A stretch of 63,201 bases of DNA, filler included, from Candidatus Babelota bacterium (GTDB taxonomy: Bacteria; JAGOBX01), in assembly GCA_017999075.1 (NCBI GenBank). It is 13 parts of 13 records of this genome, joined end to end, with 100 filler letters (N's around TTAATTAATTAA, not from the genome) between each part and the next. Parts side by side here need not be neighbours in the genome. Positions count along the whole stretch, not along the records: positions 1 to 11,991 come from JAGOBX010000060.1; 12 more parts are not named here. One strand, written 5' to 3'. A program made the translations under genes and the position numbers. Positions within the stretch are counted from its first letter, which is position 1. The number at the start of each line of letters is the position of its first letter. Below the pieces are notes generated by a model. It saw only the letters and a list, made by a program, of their open reading frames with translations. It searched no databases and was not told where the DNA came from. Shown here piece after piece: positions 1 through 12,559 of the stretch.

Positions 1-2141
1 TTCACCAAAGGAATCTTGTTTAAAAATGGCACTCCTGCATTTGTTGTGTTAACAACATTTTTTATCAAGCCTCCAAGTGCTATTGTATTCCCATTTTTAA
101 CTACCACAGTTGTTTTAGCTTCACGTTTAATAATATCAACTCCTGTGGACAAAACCGAGGCGCGAGCTTCATTAACCTGCGGCGCAAGTTCAAGAGTTAT
201 ATATGTATCATTATTAATATGGGGAAGCACTTCAAGTATAATTCCCACTTCCGAACGCAATGGTGTTTGAGTTATATTGCCTGACTGAGATTCAGTAGTC
301 TGAACATCAGTAACAATATTATCAGAAATTTTTATCATAGCTTTTTTATTGTCAATTGTAGTTATTCTCGGCGAAGATAAAAGATTAAGATTAGAGTTTG
401 AATCAAGATTTTTCAATACCAGATTAAATTGTTTTACAGATAAAGTTCCATAAGTAGGTTTCCAGTCTTTAAGATTAACTGTCATCAAATCCGGCGATGA
501 CTGTATGTTAACATTTCCGAACTGCGACCAGTTTATCCCGAGACTGTTATCTTTATCAAGTCCCACTTCAATAAATTTAGCTTCTATTAAAACCTGTTTT
601 ACAGGTCTATCAAGTTCATTAATTATTTCACTCAATTTTTCCAAAAATGACTGGATATTAGTGTTCACTATAACAGAATTTGTGCGCTGGTCAACTACAA
701 CTTTAAAATAATTATTTTTATTTGCAGTAAGTGCAATCTGAGAACTGAATATTTTCTCAAGAGCATCTTTAATTTCTTCTGCTTTCGAATATCTCAAATA
801 ATAAATTTTTGTTAACAACTTTTCTATATCATTTCTGGTGGCAATATCTATTTTATCAACAATTTCCGTAACCTGTTTAACATAATTTTTTACTCCGGTA
901 ATAATCAAAGCATTTATATTGTCGTCAGCTTCAACTATTCCTGATCTGGTGGAAGACATTTTCTGCAAAATATTTTTCACATTAGAAGCTATAACATATT
1001 TAAGTTTAATAATTTTGGTTTCTTCGTAAAATCCTTCTTTCCTTTTTTCCCATATATCTTTTGAATCAAGAAGTTTCACTACAGATTCAGCTTTATCAAG
1101 GTATTCCTGCAAATCTGTTATCATTATTGAGTTTGAAGACGGCAGCACTTCAACTATCCCGTTAGACGACAGTATGGATTTAACAGGCTTATTTATTTCA
1201 TCAGCTGCTGCATATTGAATTTTAAAAATTTTTGTTTTATACGGTTCAGGCATACTTGACAATCTGTTTGCCGGAACGACTTTAATCAAATCTCCGTCTA
1301 TCACATAACCATAACCATTAACTTTCAATATACTGTCAAGAACTTTAGTTAACGGCGTATTTTTCAATGATACAGTCACTTTCCCTGTAATTTCAGAACT
1401 GGCAATAATATTCATGCCTGCCGACTGACTCAATAATCTTAAAACATTCTGCAATTCCGCCTCTTTCAGATCCAAAGAAATCAAATTATCTTTTTTCTCG
1501 ATTTTGATTGAATTTCCGCTATTCAACGAAGAATTTTCATAATTTTTATCAGCCGAAATTTCTTTTTTTACGAATTCATCAGACTTTGAAATGGTATTTT
1601 TTTTTTCCGAAGGAAAAGACACAGCCGAATTTTCTGCCGATTCATTTTTTTCCGGAATTTGTACAGGTTTCGAAAAAACTTTTATGTTTTCAGAGATTGT
1701 TGGTTTTGGGTCACCATTATTTCCTGAATTTTCCAAAACTGTATTTTTTCCAATAGTTATAACAAGTATGCCTCCGCCGTGCGAATAAATATACTCTGCA
1801 TTATCTTCCAAATCAAAAACCATTCTTGCAACATTATTTTTAAACTGACCAAACCGAACCTGTTTAACCGCAGAACCTGAACCGATAACGGTTTTAGTTT
1901 CCCCTTTTTTCTGGTTCCATCTGCATCCGGTCAAGTCAGCAACAATTTTTTTTTCTTCCGGCAAACTAAAAATCTCAGGAGTAACAGAATCATTCAAAGG
2001 AAGACGAAATACAATTTTTCCGTTGTTCTGTTCAAATTTTAATAAAAACGGTTTAACAGAAACAGCCGCATATAAAGAATTAATCAATATTAAAAAGATA
2101 ATAGCGTTTAACATCAAAAAACGGTATGTTTTTTTTTTCAT
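1..2141 (-). CDS. pilQ: Type IV pilus/T2SS secretin (PilQ-like: signal peptide, AMIN-like, STN, N-domains, secretin domain); 3' end runs off the window
   Basis: Missing from the ORF track because it has no stop in the window. My minus-strand translation from ATG 2141 gives MKKKTYRFLMLNAIIFLILINSLYA..., ISLDLKEAELQNVLRLLSQSAGMNII (STN), ELDRPVKQVLIEAKFIEV, LLSSPRITTIDNKKAMI, VGIILEVLPHI, TTVVVKNGNTIALGGLIK and GVPFLNKIP, which are secretin hallmarks. It lies downstream of pilM/N/O/P-like genes. Confidence 0.9.
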   Translation of the reverse strand, partial: MKKKTYRFLMLNAIIFLILINSLYAAVSVKPFLLKFEQNNGKIVFRLPLNDSVTPEIFSLPEEKKIVADLTGCRWNQKKGETKTVIGSGSAVKQVRFGQFKNNVARMVFDLEDNAEYIYSHGGGILVITIGKNTVLENSGNNGDPKPTISENIKVFSKPVQIPEKNESAENSAVSFPSEKKNTISKSDEFVKKEISADKNYENSSLNSGNSIKIEKKDNLISLDLKEAELQNVLRLLSQSAGMNIIASSEITGKVTVSLKNTPLTKVLDSILKVNGYGYVIDGDLIKVVPANRLSSMPEPYKTKIFKIQYAAADEINKPVKSILSSNGIVEVLPSSNSIMITDLQEYLDKAESVVKLLDSKDIWEKRKEGFYEETKIIKLKYVIASNVKNILQKMSSTRSGIVEADDNINALIITGVKNYVKQVTEIVDKIDIATRNDIEKLLTKIYYLRYSKAEEIKDALEKIFSSQIALTANKNNYFKVVVDQRTNSVIVNTNIQSFLEKLSEIINELDRPVKQVLIEAKFIEVGLDKDNSLGINWSQFGNVNIQSSPDLMTVNLKDWKPTYGTLSVKQFNLVLKNLDSNSNLNLLSSPRITTIDNKKAMIKISDNIVTDVQTTESQSGNITQTPLRSEVGIILEVLPHINNDTYITLELAPQVNEARASVLSTGVDIIKREAKTTVVVKNGNTIALGGLIKNVVNTTNAGVPFLNKIPLV

Positions 2142-2174
2142 TTTTTTTCCACCCTGACGCCGAATTTCCATTGA

Positions 2175-2684
2175 TTAAAGTTTATCAGGTTTCTGCATAT
2201 TGACATAATACAACTGATCATTCTGTATTATAGTAACCTGATTATCCGAAATTTTATATATACTAACACCAAACAATTTATCGCCTTCTTTCACAATATT
2301 ATCATTTATAATTGCATATTTTATATTATTTATCAGTATTATTCCACTTAATTTAAATGAGTCAGGACTAACAACAGCACCGGAAGTATCATTATTTAAT
2401 GGACGTTTTACAGATTCGGTTTTATTTGCAAATATAACAGTAAACGGATTACGGACATATGAATCAGAATATGTTTTAGAAACCGGAACAGCATTTTCTT
2501 TTTTGGAAACAGGAGAAACAGTCATATTTGATTTTGCGTAAATAATATCCAATTCTGTTTTTATAAAGTTTTCAATGTTTTTACTTTGGTAATTTCTTTC
2601 TAATATTGCAAAACTCCATGCGGAAACAAGAACAGCTATTATAATCAGCAATATTATTTTACCTTTTTTATCAAGTTTATTCAT
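2175..2684 (-). CDS. PilP/GspC-like pilus assembly protein
   Basis: N-terminal TM helix, RNPF motif, C-terminal FKLSGII...YAIINDNIVKEGD beta domain; sits between the pilO-like gene and the secretin. Confidence 0.65.
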   Translation of the reverse strand: MNKLDKKGKIILLIIIAVLVSAWSFAILERNYQSKNIENFIKTELDIIYAKSNMTVSPVSKKENAVPVSKTYSDSYVRNPFTVIFANKTESVKRPLNNDTSGAVVSPDSFKLSGIILINNIKYAIINDNIVKEGDKLFGVSIYKISDNQVTIIQNDQLYYVNMQKPDKL

Positions 2685-3217
2685 TGCTGTGAAAATCCTG
2701 TAAAACTAATTTTTATTTCAAGTAAATTCGAGTTATCCGGTTTTCTGATATCAATATCATGCATCTGTATCATATATTTATAATCAGAAATTTTATCAAT
2801 AAACCTTAAAAAATCATTATAATCCGAATGTATTGTCATATTAAGAAAATTATCTGAAAAATATTCATAATATAAAATTTTTTTACCAGCTGAAGAATTC
2901 AATATAATAATATTATTATTTTTTGCTTCAGTAAAAATATCATTGATAATATTTAAAATCTGCTGTTTGTCCTTCAAAAGATAAAACTCAAGTTCTTTAT
3001 TTTTTTCTTTATTTAATATAAATTCCATTTTTTTTTCAAGAAGTTCCATATGTCGGTTTTTAAGCTGAACAAAATCAGACTGGGCTTTTTCAGTTTGGAT
3101 TTCATATTCAGAAACTTTTTTTTGAACAGGCCCAAGCACATATATTTTCCATAACAAAAGAAAACAAACAGAACTTATAACAATAAGTTTTTTCAGTTCT
3201 TTATCGGAAATTTTCAT
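2681..3217 (-). CDS. pilO: PilO/GspM-like pilus assembly protein
   Basis: N-terminal TM, coiled coil, C-terminal ferredoxin-like segment (SDYNDFLRFIDKI...); 4-nt overlaps with both neighbours. Confidence 0.7.
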   Translation of the reverse strand: MKISDKELKKLIVISSVCFLLLWKIYVLGPVQKKVSEYEIQTEKAQSDFVQLKNRHMELLEKKMEFILNKEKNKELEFYLLKDKQQILNIINDIFTEAKNNNIIILNSSAGKKILYYEYFSDNFLNMTIHSDYNDFLRFIDKISDYKYMIQMHDIDIRKPDNSNLLEIKISFTGFSQQ

Positions 3218-4782
3218 AATAAAGTAGCCTCTTTCAAAACAGCCGTTATTTCAAATCTGGTCATATTATATGATTTATAAACTTCCCTCGAAGAATTATC
3301 AAGATTAATATTCATAAACAAATTAGTTTTATCAAGATTTACTATGAAAGAAGGCACCAGCATAGGAGAAACGCTCCATCCCTGAATTACGATTACAGAC
3401 TGAGGTTTTGGTTCAACCTTCAAAGTTTTAAAATTAAATTTTGTAAACATTACTCCCTGAGGAGCTGATCTGGATATAAGTTTAAACAGATTATTATAAT
3501 CATAATTGTTCGATTCAATAAAGATTTTGATTTTTTTGTTTACAGTTACAATATTCTGCGAAGACAAGAATTTGTCAAGTTCAGAAATCTGGCTCTGCAA
3601 TTGGTTGTTTAAATAAATTTTAGAATCATATAATTTTTTATGCGTATTTTCTATATATGAAGGCAGTGTAATCATTGTAAGAATTATCATTATCATAACC
3701 AGCTGAAACACAGGTTTTTTTATAAGTCCGGCATCCTCGCTGAATTCAATAGCTGAACGGTTTATCTTTTCATTTAATTTTATTGCATTTTTTTCATTCA
3801 TATTATTCATCGAATAAATCAATCCTGACTTATCCTTTATCTGATTATTTTCCGGAACCGAATATATCTGAATTGATTTGTTAAGTTCTGATTTGAATAA
3901 CTGGGGCAAACCATTGATTTTAGAAAGAAATCCTGTTGCAAAAATCTGATTCACCTGACTTATTTTATAATTTGATTTCAAAAAATTTTCAGTTTTTTTA
4001 ATCTCGTCAGCAATCAGCTTCAATTCAATTTTTATATTATTGGAAAATTCTATATAACTATTTTTTTCAATATCAAAACCTTCAGGTTCAGAATAAGGAA
4101 GCAAATGTATGTCCTTTATGCGTTCCGAAATGTTCCCGTCTTCTTTTTTAAAATATTCGGCTATTATTTTTGTCATCTGTTCGGCAATATTTTCAAAACT
4201 ACGTTTATATTTTATATATCCGTTTTCAAAAAATGTCAGAACTATATTATCGCTATCCATATTAATCAAAAAAAAGTGATTATCTAAAACCGCGTCAGGC
4301 TGATAAACAGAAATCAAATTTTCAAACACAGATTCTTCAGAAACGATAAATCTAATTTTGAATTTACGTTCAGAAAGAATTTTCACAATTCCATCAACAA
4401 AATTTTTTGAAACAAGCTCAATTTTAAAATTCTGTTTTTTAACGGAATCTTCAACTACACTCTCAATTTTTTTAAAATTCCAATAATATTGTTCAAATTT
4501 AGCAGAATAAAGTTTAACGAGTTCCCAGTATATAATTTCAGCAGAATTCGATTTATCCGCAGGCAATTTTAAATATCTCAGTATTATATTTTCTGAAGAA
4601 ATAACAAGTTCGACAGGAATCCGGCTATACTCATCAGGTATATTTTTAACAATTTCTTTGTATTGCTGAATAAAATCAAGTGATTTACTTAATTTTTTCG
4701 AAATATGATTGACAATAATAGACTTATCAATCACAGTAACATTAACTAATTTACCGGATATATATATAATTATTTTCGACAT
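3214..4782 (-). CDS. Fused PilM (actin-like) + PilN protein (GspL-like architecture)
   Basis: N-terminal PilM-like region (IILRYLKLP, FLINMDSDNIVLTFFENG, IFATGFLSKINGLPQLFKSEL), a TM helix, then a PilN-like domain (LISRSAPQGVMFTKF...IQGWS...FIVNLDKTNLFMNINL). The ORF track starts at TTG 4833, which coincides with a -35 box; ATG 4794 or 4782 is more likely. Confidence 0.75.
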   Translation of the reverse strand: MSKIIIYISGKLVNVTVIDKSIIVNHISKKLSKSLDFIQQYKEIVKNIPDEYSRIPVELVISSENIILRYLKLPADKSNSAEIIYWELVKLYSAKFEQYYWNFKKIESVVEDSVKKQNFKIELVSKNFVDGIVKILSERKFKIRFIVSEESVFENLISVYQPDAVLDNHFFLINMDSDNIVLTFFENGYIKYKRSFENIAEQMTKIIAEYFKKEDGNISERIKDIHLLPYSEPEGFDIEKNSYIEFSNNIKIELKLIADEIKKTENFLKSNYKISQVNQIFATGFLSKINGLPQLFKSELNKSIQIYSVPENNQIKDKSGLIYSMNNMNEKNAIKLNEKINRSAIEFSEDAGLIKKPVFQLVMIMIILTMITLPSYIENTHKKLYDSKIYLNNQLQSQISELDKFLSSQNIVTVNKKIKIFIESNNYDYNNLFKLISRSAPQGVMFTKFNFKTLKVEPKPQSVIVIQGWSVSPMLVPSFIVNLDKTNLFMNINLDNSSREVYKSYNMTRFEITAVLKEATLL

Positions 4783-4804
4783 TTTATTAAACATAATTAA
4801 AAAA

Positions 4805-4833
4805 AATATAACAAAATATTTATCTAAAGTCAA
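4805..4833 (-). promoter_or_regulatory. Sigma70-like promoter for the pil operon
   Basis: Minus strand TTGACT-17 nt-TATATT. Confidence 0.5.
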
Positions 4834-4880
4834 GGAAAAAATATATTATTATTTTTTTTAATTCTTCAGGATTTTATTTC

Positions 4881-4909
4881 TTGACAATAATAATTTTTAA
4901 TATTAAAAT
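4881..4909 (+). promoter_or_regulatory. Sigma70-like promoter for the TPR-LysM gene/murG operon
   Basis: TTGACA-17 nt-TAAAAT, divergent from the pil promoter. Confidence 0.55.
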
Positions 4910-4980
4910 AAGTGAGTTAAACTATTAAAATACATAGAAATATTTTGGTTTTATCAAATATATTTTCGGAGGATCGAAAA

Positions 4981-7900
4981 GTGAAAAGATTTATTGCTGT
5001 AGTGTTACTTTTAGTTATATCAAATACAATTTTATATGCAGTTGAAAACCCTTCCGACGTTTTTCAAGAAGCAAATTCGTATTATTTTAAAAAAGATTAT
5101 ATAAATGCCATAAAATATTTCAGAAAAGTAATAAATGATTTTCCGGCGAATTCCTATACTGATCATTCATTATTCGGTCTTGGAAGCAGTTTTTTTGAAC
5201 TTGATAATTTCAAAGACGCGATTGCAGTATACAGCCAGTTAATTGAAGAATTTCCAAACAGCAGTTTTGCTGATGACGCTCTTTTCAGAATAGGTGAATC
5301 TTATGAACGCATAGGCGAATATAAAAATGCTCATATTTTTTATTCAAAATTAATCAATCAATATCCAAACAGTTTACTTTTGGCTCAAAGCAGAGAAAAA
5401 ATAAATAAATTTTCATCTTTATTATTAAAACCAGAATCTTCAGATCAGCAGACTGTAAAAACCCAGCCGGCATCAGAAAAACTTCTGACATTTCCTCAAC
5501 AAATTAATATTTCTGGAGAAACAGGCAGGCAGCTTGAACAAACGGAAAAAGGGCAGGCAAATACAGTTAAACCTCAAGTTGATATCAGCAAAATAAAAAA
5601 AATTCCGGCAACACAGCAGCCCGCTGTTAATTTAGTTCCTGTAAAAATTCCTGAATCTGTATCTCAACCTGTTCAATCTCATAAAAATGCTGCCGGAGAA
5701 CAAATGAAACAAATTGAAATGCAGGCAGACAAAAAAATTTTAGAAAAACAGTATGTCATAAGACCTGATGACACTTTAACATCTATCGCAGAAAAATTTT
5801 ATGGAGATTTTAATTTATATACAAGAATAGCAGATTATAACAATATAAAAAATCCGACTAATATAAAAATAGGCGAAACAATACTTATTCCTTTTGAAAC
5901 CGATGAAAAAAAACAGGAAACACCTTCTATCCCTGATAATTCCGACCAGAATCAGCAGACAGAATCAGCATATCGTGATGTGTTAAATGAACTTGATGCA
6001 GAAGACCAGAAATCAGCAGGAATTAAACCTATAGAAAAAAATAAAACAGATGACGCATATATTTATTCATATAAACTCGAAAAAGAAAGAAAAAATTATG
6101 AACAGCTTTTAAACATAGAAAAAGACAAACGCCGCCAGCTTCTTGAAAAAATCAGAAACCTTGAAACCCAGATCGCCAGAATGAACCTTGAAATCGATAC
6201 TTATAAAAACAATTTAAATTCTCTTCAGGAATTAAAAACAAAACTTACTGATTTTGAAAAAACCAATAGTGATTTAATAGAATCCTTAAAATTGCAGAAA
6301 CAAAAAGAAATCATAAGAGAAGCAAAAAACAAAACCGAACTTCTCAAGCTTCAAAGAGACCTTGAAGATCTGACATCTAAATACAATGTCGCAAAAGCCG
6401 ATTTTGAATCAAAAAAATATAATGAAATGATTACCCAAAAAGAACAGCAGCTTGCCCAGACAAGCATTTTAATATCCCAGTTAAACAATAAAATTCAATC
6501 CATGGAATCAGATAATTCGAATTTCAGAAATCAAATAGATAAACTGCAGCGAGAACTTATAGTTGCAAATGAATACCGTACTAAAGTCGCAGGATATGAA
6601 CAGCAGTTAACTGATAAAAACAAAATAGTATCTGACTTAGATGAATCATTAAAAAAATTAACTTTAAGCAACAAAACATTATCTGATTCAGTGATAGAAA
6701 TTCAAACAAAATATGAAACTGTTTATAACAGCAAAAACAAATTGGAATCAGTTAATAAAGAAATTTCCGACAAACTCACAAAAAAAGAAGCTGAACTTCT
6801 TGAATTCGCAAAACAAATTCAGTCTTTTAACAAGGAAATAGAAAATTTAAAAGCAGATTATCAGACAAAACTTGATACTGCTGCGGCAGAAAAAAAGAAT
6901 ACTCAGAAAATTATCGAGGATTTAACAACAAATAACAAATATATATCTGAGGAATTAATGAAATTAAAAAATCGTATAATTGAACTTCAGAAAGATTCTA
7001 TTTCTTCAAAAGAAGGCAAAACAAAATCCGATCAGAAAAGCGCTCTTATGGAATCTCAAATTCAGACATTGAATTCAACTATAGATAACTTGACTAAAGA
7101 AAGTAATTCCTTAAAAACCGAACTTAATACATTAAAAGATCTTCATTCAACCACAGAAACAAATTGGAAAAACAAAGAACTCGCATATCAATCAGAAATA
7201 GCCGCTGTAAAACAGCAGAATACATCCCTTGCAACAAATTTAAAATCAAAAGAATCCGAACTTCAGACAATTCAGGAATTATCAAAAAAAACTGATTCTG
7301 AAACAGTAAACAAACTAAAGGAATTAAATGATAAACTCAACAGTCAGTTATTGATGCTGCAAAACGAAATTAATTCTTTGCAAAAACAATATATTTCTTC
7401 TTCTGATGATAAAGAAAAACCTGCCGGGAATCAGGTTAAAAAAGAAACTCCTGTAAAAGACAAACAATCTCAGTCAGTAAAATCAAAAGATGCAAAAACA
7501 GATGTAAAAACTCAGATTAAAGAAATTTCCTCATCAAAACAGGAAGAAAGTTCAAATACTCCTAAACCCGATGAATCTGAAACTGTAAAAAATACCGTTT
7601 CCCCTTCAACTGAATCAGATATAATCAGCAAAATGGAAATTGACAGAAATAAAAAATCTGCAAAAGAACAAATTGCCAAAGGCATAATTTTTAAAAATAA
7701 AGGCGATTTCCAGAATGCAGAATCATGCTATAAAAAAGCACTGGAGCTTGATCCTGAAAATGCCGACGGTTATAATCATCTCGGATTCTTATATACTGAA
7801 TTTGATAAAAACCTTGATATTGCAGCTGATCTTGTAAATAAAGCAGTCCAACTCAATTCTGGAGATAAAGGTTATTATTATGACACTCTTGGATGGATTT

Positions 7901-8130
7901 ATTATAAACAGGGATTATATCAGAAATCAAAAAAATATATATCTGATGCTTTGGAACTTATTCCGCAAAATGACAAACAGGCATTGGCGTCTGTTTACTA
8001 TCATTTAGGAATGGTTTACATGAAACTTAATGATCCGAATAACGCTTTTTTTCAGTTTATCGAAGTGTTGAAATTATCACCTAATTCTACAGCGGCAATT
8101 AAATCAAAACAACAGCTTGATTTACTGTAA
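4981..8130 (+). CDS. Exported TPR + LysM + long coiled-coil + TPR protein
   Basis: GGAGG then GTG 4981; signal peptide; N-terminal BamD/CpoB-like TPRs; LysM (YVIRPDDTLTSIAEKFYGD...NNIKNPTNIKIGETILIP); a several-hundred-residue coiled coil; C-terminal TPRs (YDTLGWIYYKQG). Confidence 0.8.
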   Translation: MKRFIAVVLLLVISNTILYAVENPSDVFQEANSYYFKKDYINAIKYFRKVINDFPANSYTDHSLFGLGSSFFELDNFKDAIAVYSQLIEEFPNSSFADDALFRIGESYERIGEYKNAHIFYSKLINQYPNSLLLAQSREKINKFSSLLLKPESSDQQTVKTQPASEKLLTFPQQINISGETGRQLEQTEKGQANTVKPQVDISKIKKIPATQQPAVNLVPVKIPESVSQPVQSHKNAAGEQMKQIEMQADKKILEKQYVIRPDDTLTSIAEKFYGDFNLYTRIADYNNIKNPTNIKIGETILIPFETDEKKQETPSIPDNSDQNQQTESAYRDVLNELDAEDQKSAGIKPIEKNKTDDAYIYSYKLEKERKNYEQLLNIEKDKRRQLLEKIRNLETQIARMNLEIDTYKNNLNSLQELKTKLTDFEKTNSDLIESLKLQKQKEIIREAKNKTELLKLQRDLEDLTSKYNVAKADFESKKYNEMITQKEQQLAQTSILISQLNNKIQSMESDNSNFRNQIDKLQRELIVANEYRTKVAGYEQQLTDKNKIVSDLDESLKKLTLSNKTLSDSVIEIQTKYETVYNSKNKLESVNKEISDKLTKKEAELLEFAKQIQSFNKEIENLKADYQTKLDTAAAEKKNTQKIIEDLTTNNKYISEELMKLKNRIIELQKDSISSKEGKTKSDQKSALMESQIQTLNSTIDNLTKESNSLKTELNTLKDLHSTTETNWKNKELAYQSEIAAVKQQNTSLATNLKSKESELQTIQELSKKTDSETVNKLKELNDKLNSQLLMLQNEINSLQKQYISSSDDKEKPAGNQVKKETPVKDKQSQSVKSKDAKTDVKTQIKEISSSKQEESSNTPKPDESETVKNTVSPSTESDIISKMEIDRNKKSAKEQIAKGIIFKNKGDFQNAESCYKKALELDPENADGYNHLGFLYTEFDKNLDIAADLVNKAVQLNSGDKGYYYDTLGWIYYKQGLYQKSKKYISDALELIPQNDKQALASVYYHLGMVYMKLNDPNNAFFQFIEVLKLSPNSTAAIKSKQQLDLL

Positions 8131-8184
8131 AATATAGTTTTCGTTATTTTTTGTATAAAACACATATTACCAAATACAAATTTT

Positions 8185-9234
8185 ATGTTCAATATAATTG
8201 TTACCGGCGGTGGCACCGGAGGTCATTTTTATCCAGCTTACATATTATATCAAAAAATTAAAACTCAAAAAAATATAGGTAATGTTTTTTATATCGGAAG
8301 CGATTATGGAATTGAAAAAAAACTTGCCGAAGAACTTAATCTGAATTATTATTTGCTTAAATCCCGCGGATTTATCGGAAAAAATATAATTGATAAATTA
8401 TCCTCGTTATTTTTAAATTTTTGTTCAATTATAAAATCTATAAAGTTTATTTCATCCAATAGAATAGACGCTGTTATAGCTGCAGGCGGTTATGTGAGTC
8501 TGCCTGTTCTGGCAGCGGCGCTCATTCTTAAAAAAAAAATATTTATACAGGAACAGAATTCGTTCCCAGGAGTTACCACAAGATTATTCTCACGTTTTGC
8601 TGATAAATTATTTGCGGCATTTGAGGATTCTGCTAAACATTTTAAAGTTGCAGCGCCTGATATAATTTCTTACATTTCCACTCCTGTCCGCGATAATTTT
8701 TTTTTGTCAGAATTTCACGAACAGAAAAATGTTATTACAGTAATAGGCGGGAGCCAGGGGTCTTCTGTTCTGAACGAAATAATTTTCAAATCTCTGTCTT
8801 TTTTCCAGAAATCAGGAATTAAGCTTAATTGGGTTACAGGAAAAAAATTTTATGAAAAATACAAAAATTGCAGCAATGAAAATATTCTGATATATGAATA
8901 CTGCAATGACATTCATAAACTTATATCAGAATCAGAATTAGTAATATCAAGGGCCGGAGCCACTTCAATAGCGGAATATTCTGTCCTTAACAAAAAAGTT
9001 TTATTTATACCTTTCCGCCAGGCAACCCATAACCATCAATTTTTCAATGCTGTATCGTATTCAAAAAAATTCACTTCAGACCTTATAGATGAAAAAGATT
9101 TAAATCACGAAATATTTATTGAAAAAATAAAAAATCTTCTGAAAACAGAAAATAAATCTGAATATAAAATAACCGAAAATCCAGCAGATTTAATTATAAA
9201 AGAAATAATGAACGTACTTAATTGTTCTAAATAA
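8185..9234 (+). CDS. murG: Undecaprenyl-PP-MurNAc-pentapeptide GlcNAc transferase
   Basis: TGGGTGGHFYP, GGYVSLP, QEQNSFPG, GGSQGS, ISRAGATSIAE and HQFFNA motifs. Confidence 0.95.
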   Translation: MFNIIVTGGGTGGHFYPAYILYQKIKTQKNIGNVFYIGSDYGIEKKLAEELNLNYYLLKSRGFIGKNIIDKLSSLFLNFCSIIKSIKFISSNRIDAVIAAGGYVSLPVLAAALILKKKIFIQEQNSFPGVTTRLFSRFADKLFAAFEDSAKHFKVAAPDIISYISTPVRDNFFLSEFHEQKNVITVIGGSQGSSVLNEIIFKSLSFFQKSGIKLNWVTGKKFYEKYKNCSNENILIYEYCNDIHKLISESELVISRAGATSIAEYSVLNKKVLFIPFRQATHNHQFFNAVSYSKKFTSDLIDEKDLNHEIFIEKIKNLLKTENKSEYKITENPADLIIKEIMNVLNCSK

Positions 9235-9243
9235 AGTGAACCT

Positions 9244-10083
9244 ATGATTTTTGCAATATCAGCAATGTTTATTTGGGCGACAACAGCCATTCAGATCAGA
9301 TTAATTAAATGCGATCCTTACACAGTGATATTCTGGTCAAATGTAATAGCAATATTTCCTGCGATATTAATAATTGCCCTAAAAAATTTCAAAAAAAATA
9401 TTTCTATATTCACGGAATACAAATGGATTTTACTGGTGGTCGGATTAATGTCAACAGTCAACAGCATAACTTTTTTTTATTCAATAAGAATGACAACTAT
9501 AGCAAACGCTTTGATGACGCATTATATGACTCCTGTAATAGTCGCGGTATCAGCTCCGATAATATTGAAAGAAAAGTTCACATTCATAACAATGATTTCA
9601 CTGGTTATTGCTATAACAGGATTATTACTTATAATAGATGTGCGTAATTTAAGATTCGAAAGCTCGGATTTTATTGGAAGTTTACTTGGGCTTATATCTG
9701 CATTTGCTTATGCTGCGGTAATACTGATAGGCAGAAATTTCAAGACAAACATCAATCCTTTTGTTTATATAATATCACAATCTTTCACTGCGCTTATTTT
9801 TATGAGTTTCCTTACAAAATATTCATTCTGGAAATTTGACGGTGTTTCATTGGCTCTATTAACTACATTCGGTCTATTTAATATAGCAGGAGCAGCATAT
9901 TTATTTTATAAATCTCTGACAAAAATAACTGCTTCTTCAGTTTCAATAATAGGATATATTGAACCTGTCGGAGCAATACTAATATCTGTCATATATTTGA
10001 ATGAACCTCTTACAGTTCAAACTATAATTGGAGGAATATTGATTTTATCAAGCGCGGCAATAATTAACATAAGGGCAAATTAA
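9244..10083 (+). CDS. DMT/EamA family transporter
   Basis: About 10 hydrophobic helices in two repeats; YIEPVGAIL...LNEPLT...IIGGILIL. Confidence 0.85.
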   Translation: MIFAISAMFIWATTAIQIRLIKCDPYTVIFWSNVIAIFPAILIIALKNFKKNISIFTEYKWILLVVGLMSTVNSITFFYSIRMTTIANALMTHYMTPVIVAVSAPIILKEKFTFITMISLVIAITGLLLIIDVRNLRFESSDFIGSLLGLISAFAYAAVILIGRNFKTNINPFVYIISQSFTALIFMSFLTKYSFWKFDGVSLALLTTFGLFNIAGAAYLFYKSLTKITASSVSIIGYIEPVGAILISVIYLNEPLTVQTIIGGILILSSAAIINIRAN

Positions 10084-10201
10084 ATCTATCTTATTCAATT
10101 TTATTGACATCGCTCCTCGCATTGAATTTACCATTTTCTATTTTACAGTATTGATAAAATTTCCCTTGTATTTTTTTTACTTTTTATTATATTTAAAAAA
10201 T

Positions 10202-11773
10202 ATGGATGTTAAGGATTTTAATGATAATATCATCAACTTTTTAAATAAAGTAAATAACGATAAAAATTATATTGAATCGTTAATAGAATATTTAAATATC
10301 CGTGAGCATAAATTTTCTGAAACCGAACAGGAAGCAGCTCCAAAATTGTTATTCAGCCGATCCCCTGAAATAAGATATAACTTTATAAAATTTATAGGAA
10401 AAGTAAAAGACAATACTCTGGCAAGCAGTTTATCTAATATTATAAACGATGATAACGAAAAATATTACATTCAGCTTGAGGCAATATCTACATTGACAAA
10501 ATTAAGCAACGGCGACGAAAATTTAAAGTCCATATTGAAAAAAGCAGTTATTAAACTTTCCACATACAAATGGCAGGAAAAAATTATAGCGAAAAATGTT
10601 TTGGCAAAAAACATTTTTGAACAATTTACCGAATCAATAAAAAACATATTGACAAAAAAATTTGAAATAAAAGTTGTTTCATTGGATACAAAACAAACTC
10701 ATAAGTTTTATCTGAAAGAAAATTTTACTGTAACATCCCGAATATCAAATGATATATATGGCGCTTTGATTCTAAATTTAAATAAAAATACAGCGATAAA
10801 TCTTATTGAAAAATTATACAAAAACGGATTGCTTAATTATCCTCAAAATGAAACAAAAAATGATTATATGATTTTTTATGATTTATTTTCTGCTATTTCA
10901 ATTTTCTATGAAGATATATCTTCAAAATTTCAAAAAAATAATAACATTTATCTTGATTTTTCGCATGCTTCTTATTTTAACCGCTCAAATATAGTGCTTT
11001 CAGAAAAAGAGGATGACGCATATGTTATTAATATAATAACAGATATAGGAGAAATTAATTTCGGATTAATACGAATATCAGAACAGTCGCTTTTGTTTGA
11101 CATCAATGAAATAATGGAGAACCTTAAAATTTTTATTGAAAATAACAAAATAGTCGTAATCTGCAAATCCGTAAAATTTTATATAGAATGTTCATTAATA
11201 AACGACGACAGTTTTAATATAATAGACAACAGACTGATTTTAAACAAAAATTCTTTTAAAAAAGTCCTTCAGTATTTCAATGTATTATCAAACGAAATAA
11301 AAATAGACAGACGCATGAATTCTCAATTTGAAAATAAAATCAGATTTTTAGGGTATGTCTGCGACGATGTTAATCTGTATTCTCAAAACTTCATTTTTCA
11401 TAAACTCGACCAGATAAATCCGGAGTTGCGCGAACGGGTTTTTTCCCAAATGACCACATATAAATATATTTTAAAACTGCACAATGAATTAGTTCAGAAA
11501 ATCATACCTAAAATGAATTATAATGAATTGCTGGCTATAATTTTAAATACTAATAATTCGATTAAAAATAAAATTATGATAAATTGTTCAGATAAAATGA
11601 AAACAACTTTAAGAAATTCAATGAACCAGTGTTTCAATGTTCATCCTGCTCTGGTATTTGAAGCAAAATATAAAATGGGCAGACTGATAAAATCTTTTGT
11701 AGAAAACGATTCCGAGGAATCAAAAAACATATCAAGACTTCTGGCTGAAATAGAGGATAAAACTCAAATCTGA
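10202..11773 (+). CDS. HEAT-repeat / degenerate CheX(CheC)-like / FliG C-terminal-like multidomain protein
   Basis: N-terminal HEAT-like helices; central region resembling CheX; C-terminal NPELRERVFSQMTTYKYILKLHNELVQKII...KIMINCSDKMKTTLRNSM...EAKYKMGRLIK resembling FliG_C. ATG 10202 preferred over the track's TTG 10151. Confidence 0.6.
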   Translation: MDVKDFNDNIINFLNKVNNDKNYIESLIEYLNIREHKFSETEQEAAPKLLFSRSPEIRYNFIKFIGKVKDNTLASSLSNIINDDNEKYYIQLEAISTLTKLSNGDENLKSILKKAVIKLSTYKWQEKIIAKNVLAKNIFEQFTESIKNILTKKFEIKVVSLDTKQTHKFYLKENFTVTSRISNDIYGALILNLNKNTAINLIEKLYKNGLLNYPQNETKNDYMIFYDLFSAISIFYEDISSKFQKNNNIYLDFSHASYFNRSNIVLSEKEDDAYVINIITDIGEINFGLIRISEQSLLFDINEIMENLKIFIENNKIVVICKSVKFYIECSLINDDSFNIIDNRLILNKNSFKKVLQYFNVLSNEIKIDRRMNSQFENKIRFLGYVCDDVNLYSQNFIFHKLDQINPELRERVFSQMTTYKYILKLHNELVQKIIPKMNYNELLAIILNTNNSIKNKIMINCSDKMKTTLRNSMNQCFNVHPALVFEAKYKMGRLIKSFVENDSEESKNISRLLAEIEDKTQI

Positions 11774-11796
11774 TTTTTCCCTATTATATCATTTAC

Positions 11797-11991
11797 ATGA
11801 AAAATTATGATAATGTAAAAAAACTTGAAGCAAAAATCGATACGGAAAAAAACCTCAAAAATTCAATAAGAGACGGAATGGCATATTCTGTAATGTCAGG
11901 TATAGCAGAAAATTTTTTTTCGCCATTTGCTGTATTTTGCGAATTTTCTTCACAGCAAATAGGAACAATAATGTCTTTACCAAGTTCAATA
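11797..11991 (+). CDS. MFS transporter, N-terminal fragment (cut by contig end)
   Basis: KNLKNSIRDGMAYSVMSGIAENFFSPFAV...QQIGTIMSLP resembles the N-terminus of an MFS family. Confidence 0.6.
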
Positions 11992-12091
11992 NNNNNNNNN
12001 NNNNNNNNNNNNNNNNNNNNNNNNNNNNNNNNNNNTTAATTAATTAANNNNNNNNNNNNNNNNNNNNNNNNNNNNNNNNNNNNNNNNNNNN
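11992..12091. other. Artificial contig spacer
   Basis: N44-TTAATTAATTAA-N44 (stops in all six frames). Confidence 0.98.
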
Positions 12092-12559
12092 GTTTATGTC
12101 CCTGCCGGAACCGTTCACGCAATATTGAAAGGAACATTAATTGCGGAAATTCAGCAGCCGTCTGACATTACTTACAGATTTTTTGATTGGAACAGAAACA
12201 ATTCTGACAGGCCTCTGCATATAGAAAATTGTCTTAAAAGCATAAAAAAAACAAAATTAGAAAATCTTATTACAAAACCATATATCTTCTTCAAAAATAA
12301 TAATTGTACTATAACAAAATTATTTAAAAACAAGTTATTTTCAATCAACTCAATTCTTTTTAAAGAGTCTATTCTAATAAGAAATACAAAAAAACAATTC
12401 ATCATCCTTTGCAATATAGGATCCGATTGTTTAATAAAATTATTGCCTAACGGAAAATTTATAAATTTTCCTAAAGGTGATACTATTTTAATTCCAGCAG
12501 TTGCAGAAGGTATAGGATTATTTTCAAATAAACCTGTCAAATTACTTGAAATTACCTGA
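12092..12559 (+). CDS. manA: Class I mannose-6-phosphate isomerase, C-terminal part (5' truncated)
   Basis: Open from the contig edge: VYVPAGTVHAILKGTLIAEIQQPSDITYRFFDWNR...RPLHIE...KGDTILIPA. Confidence 0.85.
   Translation, partial: VYVPAGTVHAILKGTLIAEIQQPSDITYRFFDWNRNNSDRPLHIENCLKSIKKTKLENLITKPYIFFKNNNCTITKLFKNKLFSINSILFKESILIRNTKKQFIILCNIGSDCLIKLLPNGKFINFPKGDTILIPAVAEGIGLFSNKPVKLLEIT

Follow-up and report, generated by a model that had tools for sequence, protein, structure and literature searches.

A stretch of DNA of 63,201 nucleotides (hereafter the window) from the genome of a Candidatus Babelota bacterium (GCA_017999075.1) was analysed with respect to one gene near its start, the product of which was designated P0001. 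The genome (G000) is an assembly of 594 contigs with a size of 3.8 Mb and a completeness of 87%. The window joins several contigs, and only its positions 1-11991 come from a single one (G000:C172); N-runs with a 'ttaattaattaa' linker at positions 11992-12093 mark an artificial contig join. The open reading frame (ORF) claimed in the original prediction, made from the DNA letters, was found to be open throughout (Table 1). P0001 reads as a soluble protein of four domains, which consists largely of parts that resemble the toolkit of chemotaxis and of the flagellar switch.

The structure of P0001 was modelled with AlphaFold2 from a seven-row family alignment (mean pLDDT 83.3, pTM 0.68). The model was composed of a helical part (residues 10-120), an alpha/beta part (residues 135-291), a unit of five beta strands and a long helix (residues 301-368) and a helical C-terminal part (residues 372-521). 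A Foldseek search of the PDB with this model gave CheX structures as top matches, followed by those of CheC, FliY, FliM and FliG. The protein had initially been described as three domains (HEAT, CheX-like and FliG-C-like). Profile and structure searches agreed with all three, those for a CheC fold and for FliG_C both giving significant matches, but a fourth unit had been overlooked, namely the beta domain with its helix at residues 297-370.

Table 1. Features of the P0001 gene and of the adjacent part of its contig (positions are those of the window)
Feature	Position	Strand	Basis or remarks
Whole CDS (P0001)	10202..11773	+	Open frame, 523 aa and stop
N-terminal HEAT-repeat domain, residues 3-123	10208..10570	+	Pfam HEAT_2, VIA-align
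CheX-fold domain, residues 134-292	10601..11077	+	VIA-align, Foldseek, hhalign
Small five-stranded beta domain with long helix, residues 297-370	11090..11311	+	Folded alone, fold unassigned
FliG-like ARM_C with C-terminal helical bundle, residues 372-503	11315..11710	+	Pfam FliG_C, VIA-align
Type IV pilus assembly cluster	3-4833	minus	
Secretin of the pilus cluster	3-2171	minus	AMIN, STN and Secretin_N domains; cut by contig end
Rest of the pilus cluster	within 3-4833	minus	Unassigned 169-aa ORF; PilO-like ORF; 539-aa ORF with PilN C-terminus
1061-aa protein, divergent to the pilus cluster	4945-8130	+	N-terminal TPRs, LysM, about 500 aa of coiled coil, C-terminal TPRs

Domain anatomy and altered functional residues

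Comparison of the model with known structures using VIA-align showed that CheX of T. maritima (1squ_A) superposes on residues 134-292 with a Z of 18.6 and an rmsd of 2.4 over 150 of 152 residues, in agreement with the CheX-like centre that had been placed by eye at about 10600-11080 (residues 134-293). With Foldseek, the CheX matches spanned E values of 1e-6 to 1e-4 (CheX 3hm4_B, E 9.6e-7), and the target-normalised TM for 1squ_A was 0.84. A relation was also detected at the sequence level, as a profile of the middle domain was aligned by hhalign to the genome's own CheX with a probability of 79.6% (E 1.5e-5, 140 columns) and found the canonical CheX of the sister genome G002 (E 4.9e-4). The top PDB sequence match of the domain was again CheX of T. 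maritima, at a non-significant E of 0.24. The Pfam families for CheX and CheC (PF13690, PF04509) had no match in P0001 at E values up to 10, nor in seven family members at E values up to 1, and those for FliM (PF02154) and FliMN_C had none in P0001 at E values up to 10. Judged from the predicted structure, the resemblance of the middle domain to CheX (Z 15.6-18.6) far exceeds that to the middle domain of FliM, for which a Z of about 10-11.5 was obtained on residues about 119-300; CheC-like 3qta (Z 11.8) and FliY 4hyn (Z 10.2) were found in the same band as the latter.

The active-site motif of CheC, CheX and FliY is D/S-X3-E-X2-N-X21-P, with roles assigned to its glutamate and asparagine in PMC12887009. 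Its columns were located in an 11-row alignment of three CheX-type proteins and eight family members. In P0001 the glutamate is represented by S230, the asparagine by S233 and the proline by A256, so that the motif is not kept, while it is kept by the genome's own CheX (STISELSN...DITPP). The only glutamate and asparagine so spaced within residues 125-296 are E217 and N220, which lie in the loop before the helix. Loss of the catalytic E-x-x-N pair had been predicted, and the pair is indeed missing under both registers, but the register read by eye was found to be off by one helical turn, according to the alignment and the spacing to the motif proline. Across the family, the glutamate is present in one of eight members and the asparagine in four, the two occurring together only in one of two paralogs of the host genome (paralog B, described below), which also keeps the spacing X21-P. 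In the congeneric genome G001, the orthologue of this paralog possesses a proline at the glutamate position and lacks the motif proline. As the motif differs even between congeneric orthologues, catalysis is not under selection in this family.

These observations bear on whether P0001 could still act as a phosphatase of phosphorylated CheY (CheY-P) by means of other residues, for instance E237, situated one turn past the canonical asparagine position, with the extra domains serving to target it. The CheX fold is complete, with its long helix (residues 221-247) in place, the family-specific E237 is found in 7/8 members, and paralog B of the host retains E-X2-N-X21-P. However, serine occupies both catalytic positions of P0001, with no asparagine or glutamine at the S233 column or one turn before E237, and residual phosphatase activity is considered highly improbable.

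Conservation within the CheX-fold domain is highest in the loop N263-D272 (NIVLSEKEDD), which, on the basis of the alignment, would correspond to a segment described as intradimer surface in CheX of V. vulnificus (PMC12887009). A prediction with two copies of residues 125-372, addressing the question of a homodimer formed via the beta-sheet, returned no verdict (score 0.00, in a run without controls).

Towards the C-terminus, residues 401-502 were matched by Pfam FliG_C (PF01706) with 38.6 bits (cut-off 23.3), a match shared by five of seven members. A sequence search of the PDB identified FliG of T. maritima (4fhr_B; E 1e-5, residues 386-499), and VIA-align superposed FliG structures 3ajc on residues 377-504 (Z 14.2) and 1qc7_B on residues 417-503 (Z 13.2, rmsd 1.9, 87 residues). 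The structural match covers FliG residues about 195-322, where the identity to T. maritima FliG is about 23%. The FliG-C-like end had been expected at about 11400-11740, and the Pfam match is in keeping with this, with the structure beginning earlier, at about residue 372. Pfam matches to FliG_N and FliG_M were not obtained in P0001, and the fliG model TIGR00207 aligned with its C-terminal part only, with a score of 32.9 bits (cut-off 226.7).

Contact with the stator has been attributed in E. coli FliG to R281, D288 and D289 as primary residues and to K264 and R297 as secondary ones (PMC6079164, PMC11528121), with D289 described as critical for stator assembly (PMC6079164). The family was aligned with E. 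coli FliG (NC_000913) and with the genome's own FliG in order to map these residues. At the positions of K264, R281, D288, D289 and R297, the genome's own FliG was found to possess K, R, E, D and R, respectively, and P0001 to possess L, K, N, S and H. One of the five is thus conservatively kept (R281 to K) and four are lost, and the D289 position is acidic in none of the eight family members. The helix at the position of the torque helix (about residues 461-474) bears K465, N472 and S473. At residues 417-422, MTTYKY takes the place of the MFXF hinge, for which the FliG of the host has MFVFED. Resemblance to FliG is strongest in two stretches, the NPEL segment within ARM_C and the helix that precedes the torque helix.

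The loss of the stator charges counts against a simple stator-binding brake. A broader form of this explanation is that the FliG-like part rivals the FliG of the rotor, either through placement of its ARM_C on FliG ARM_M or through capture of the MotA stator, and that the motor is slowed or uncoupled as a result. It draws on the structural completeness of the ARM_C and C-terminal bundle (Z 12-14) and on the two FliG-like stretches named above, but the single conservatively kept contact residue, the missing acidic residue at D289, the absence of the MFXF hinge and the lack of a FliG_N or FliG_M for incorporation into the ring make such a brake or decoy unlikely.

For the N-terminal domain, Pfam HEAT_2 (PF13646) was above its cut-off when residues 1-124 were scanned alone (30.6 bits versus 27.7) and was matched by 5/6 family members, which upholds the HEAT part of the original prediction; in the scan of the whole protein it was sub-threshold (15.5 bits). 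Residues 3-123 also matched designed alpha-repeat and ARM proteins with a Z of about 10 (VIA-align). A relationship of this domain to FliG_N/M was ruled out, as hhalign against the genome's own FliG gave a probability of 0.4%.

The beta unit (residues 293-372) was predicted with a pLDDT of 83.0 when folded alone. No clear relative of it was found with VIA-align among 48,161 chains (best Z 3.8) or with Foldseek (best E 0.029), and the same searches gave no clear match whatever when examined for a fold of the SpoA/FliN type following the CheC-like domain. Matches to PH-like and PilZ domains were weak (Z about 3) and were disregarded. The beta domain contains C321 (window about 11162-11164), which, like C387-D388 of ARM_C (window about 11360-11365), is invariant in 8/8 family members; neither FliG sequence of the alignment has C321 or C387. 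A further cysteine, C462, is kept in 7/8 members.

A structure search of the ESM Atlas identified no cluster sharing the architecture of P0001, the clusters matched being those of CheX (row-normalised TM 0.80-0.85). Full-text literature searches, at the level of listings, abstracts and passages, retrieved no report of the same architecture, consistent with its not having been recognised as described when first noted; those for a fusion of FliG with CheX, for non-flagellar FliG_C paralogs and for PF01706 were equally without a protein of this build. P0001 is a new domain architecture assembled from known folds.

Family distribution and host repertoire

The family of P0001 is very small. Three relatives besides the query were returned by a word-indexed search that covered 5.8 billion clusters, and 1.84 billion representatives were searched exhaustively with a profile, which yielded five proteins at E values up to 1e-10, all of them family members or fragments of these. 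The other 31 matches, up to an E of 0.001, covered only the FliG-like C-terminal part of the profile (positions about 358-505), and FliG-type C-terminal regions were present in each of the five that were retrieved (P0008, P0009, P0012, P0021, P0023). Among 41 genomes searched, in a collection that includes four genomes of the host phylum, full-length matches were confined to three genomes of one family (G000, G001 and G002). A metagenome scan with the family alignment added four more loci.

Each of these three genomes was found to encode two intact paralogs, A and B, which share about 25% identity, in addition to a canonical FliG. In the host, P0001 is paralog A, and paralog B (L011:5920-7491, contig C86; orthologue in G001 at L013:1567-3138) has no Pfam match at E values up to 0.001, FliG_C included. 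The proportions of non-synonymous (pN) and synonymous (pS) differences between the orthologues of the congeners G000 and G001 were 0.108 versus 0.841 for paralog A and 0.184 versus 0.739 for paralog B, and pN was low (0.05-0.19) against a near-saturated pS in all four domains. This combination of saturated synonymous sites and few non-synonymous differences indicates that both paralogs have been maintained by purifying selection.

The assembly had been proposed for a check on canonical fliG and fliM, and both were identified elsewhere in it, the former within a fliF-fliG-fliH-fliI operon and the latter encoding a FliM that scores 268.9 bits, together with a canonical cheX. Seven matches of the CheA type (H-kinase_dim) were located on contigs C57, C471, C417, C355, C226, C288 and C369, and 77 ORFs with a receiver domain were counted, of which 18 are single-domain and of 160 aa or less, and none stood out as a CheY candidate for pairing with P0001. 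The chemosensory repertoire of G000 is unusually large, and its gene content is that of a flagellated host rich in signalling genes.

Other proteins with related parts were encountered during these searches. On contig C252 of the host (L017:1414-2199, minus strand), a fusion of PilZ (28.9 bits) and CheX (41.8 bits) of 262 aa was identified; its E-x2-N is intact, which makes it a candidate CheY-P phosphatase under the control of c-di-GMP (cyclic diguanylate). A divergent CheX-like ORF with E-x2-N on contig C124 of G003 (L024:1504-1848), the fourth genome of the phylum, starts at the CheX fold and has no HEAT part, and whether a FliG-like part follows cannot be told because the contig end cuts the ORF. 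Among the metagenome proteins fetched, further unusual FliG_C architectures were a GATase_7 domain joined to FliG_C (P0012, 415 aa), a repeat protein of 605 aa that ends in FliG_C (P0021) and tandem duplications of the FliG middle and C-terminal parts (P0008, P0009). Unlike P0001, these four score 120-200 bits on FliG_C, and chimeric assembly is possible for them.

Gene neighbourhood

Gene context was compared at seven loci of the family. In the host, the gene of paralog A is preceded by murG and a gene for an EamA transporter, and a pilMNOPQ-like cluster in divergent orientation is located some 5 kb away (Table 1). In this cluster, the long N-terminal part of the 539-aa PilN ORF might be PilM-like. 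The 1061-aa protein encoded divergently to this cluster has an architecture that we take to recall polar landmark proteins of the FimV/HubP type. Paralog A adjoins a gene for an NHL-repeat protein in G001, and a sugar transferase gene and ispF in G002, with CheR 2.3 kb off; the contig of P0003 carries a divergent uncharacterised neighbour.

Paralog B is situated downstream of MBL-fold, UDPGP and BFN genes in both G000 and G001. The copy in G000 also adjoins two pseudopilin-like genes, one with a Pfam N_methyl match and the other read as such by eye and having no Pfam match. In G002, paralog B precedes a response regulator gene (L015:10642-11049), an adjacency that is not conserved, since its orthologue in G000 (59% identity) lies elsewhere, after an unrelated gene on contig C286. 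A gene encoding a receiver (REC) domain only, at 46123-46545 of the window (minus strand), which the original prediction had called CheY, is not physically linked to the P0001 gene, as it lies beyond the contig end at 11991. Within positions 10000-11991, sigma-70-like sites were as frequent as expected by chance (14 versus 14.7), and no terminator-like site was found.

Proximity to pilus genes, as seen for paralog A in the host and in the pseudopilin-like neighbours of its paralog B, raises the question of whether the family has left the flagellar system altogether, its folds having been kept as protein-protein interaction modules with a role outside CheY and the motor, for example in envelope or pilus biogenesis or in other signalling. 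The hallmark motifs of both parts are lost, no flagellar or che operon is found at any of the seven loci, and the features conserved most strongly (the NIxLSEKxD loop, C321 and C387-D388) are specific to the family, being found in neither CheX nor FliG. The proximity to pilus genes is, however, not kept in G001 or G002. Such an explanation is also unparsimonious, in that two folds of one machine would have been joined with neither remaining linked to that machine, and it fits poorly with the unusually large chemosensory repertoire of the host. A repurposed scaffold of this kind is regarded as possible, if rather unlikely.

Proposed function and comparison with known systems

As the CheX-like and FliG-like parts of P0001 are without their working residues, the protein probably binds or regulates rather than catalyses or turns. 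We tentatively propose, with a probability of about 35%, that P0001 acts in the chemotaxis-motility network as an adaptor or regulator that neither catalyses a reaction nor generates torque. Its mode of action is most likely binding rather than catalysis or torque generation. The CheX-fold domain would bind a phosphorylated response regulator of the CheY type without hydrolysis, in the manner of the FliM middle domain, a binding module with a non-catalytic CheC fold. Helical-repeat docking surfaces directed towards FliG or FliM of the C ring or towards another partner may be provided by the FliG-like and HEAT parts, and P0001 would in this way adjust or buffer signals at the motor without driving it. 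All of its binding partners, as well as its physiological effect, are what we infer.

The evidence is made up of the folds, the losses of motifs, purifying selection, the presence of two conserved paralogs, restriction to a lineage and co-occurrence with canonical FliG in all three genomes and with FliM and CheX in the host. Several points weigh against this proposal. The co-occurrence with flagella is without statistical weight, because only three genomes are concerned. No neighbour is conserved across genera at the seven loci, and the contexts of the paralog A orthologues (G000, G001, G002 and the P0003 contig) differ from each other and are neither flagellar nor che operons. A motif of the sigma-28 type was not found upstream of the seven family genes examined, a single CGATAA (paralog B of G001) being located within the upstream gene. 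The middle domain is CheX-like rather than FliM-like, with no Pfam FliM match. Moreover, the glutamate of the CheX motif is said in PMC12887009 to share in the binding of CheY-P, and binding by P0001 may accordingly be weakened.

The original prediction had gone further and presented the single chain as a mimic of a FliM-FliG unit outside any flagellar operon, with a possible role as a motor brake or adaptor or as a repurposed sensor of CheY-P. The non-flagellar context and the FliG_C match are in line with this, but the middle domain resembles CheX, and the stator charges have been lost. A related arrangement would be an off-motor switch in miniature, in which the CheX fold serves as a FliM-like receiver of a phosphorylated regulator of the CheY type and acts in cis on an output domain similar to FliG_C. 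Once bound, the regulator would shift the conformation of the FliG-like and HEAT parts or their choice of partner, and the output of one of the many chemosensory pathways of the host would thereby reach a target that does not rotate, for instance type IV pili, with paralogs A and B possibly acting as a heterodimer. We regard this arrangement as quite doubtful.

FliG_C and the CheC/CheX fold belong to the core of the flagellar switch and of the system that terminates its signal, and in P0001 they are present in one polypeptide. Read as an adaptor or regulator, the conserved pair of paralogs, encoded beside a canonical set, would exemplify the recycling of switch components. Were a partner identified, the link between the many chemosensory pathways of such a lineage and its motility machines would become visible, and a non-catalytic class would be added to the CheX family. 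This significance is bounded by an uncultured lineage, by three genomes carrying the gene and by a function that is inferred.

Compared with known systems, P0001 is functionally neither CheX, FliG nor FliM, because the defining motifs tested for were not found in it. With CheX (PF13690), it shares an alpha/beta fold that extends over the full CheX chain, and a sequence relation to the CheX of the same genome is weak but can be detected; CheX is, however, a free protein of about 155 aa, whereas the CheX fold of P0001 sits among three other domains and its motif is gone. With the C-terminal part of FliG (PF01706), it shares the FliG_C domain and the structure of ARM_C with its bundle, and differs in having no FliG_N or FliG_M, one of five stator charges and no MFXF, and in being encoded outside the fliF-fliG operon.

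FliM is characterized by an N-terminal CheY-binding peptide and a GGXG motif. Its middle domain likewise has a fold of the CheC superfamily without the phosphatase residues, which in P0001 is joined in one chain with a FliG part; the structural match to FliM is clearly weaker than that to CheX, with no Pfam match to FliM or FliMN_C. FliY (CheC-like with FliN), REC-CheX and PilZ-CheX proteins have neither a FliG_C nor a HEAT domain, unlike P0001, and the PilZ-CheX fusion of the host, the only fusion checked, keeps the E-X2-N that P0001 does not. Clusters of REC-CheX are the nearest structures to P0001 in the ESM Atlas, and these three groups of proteins also use CheC/CheX folds as modules of larger motility regulators.

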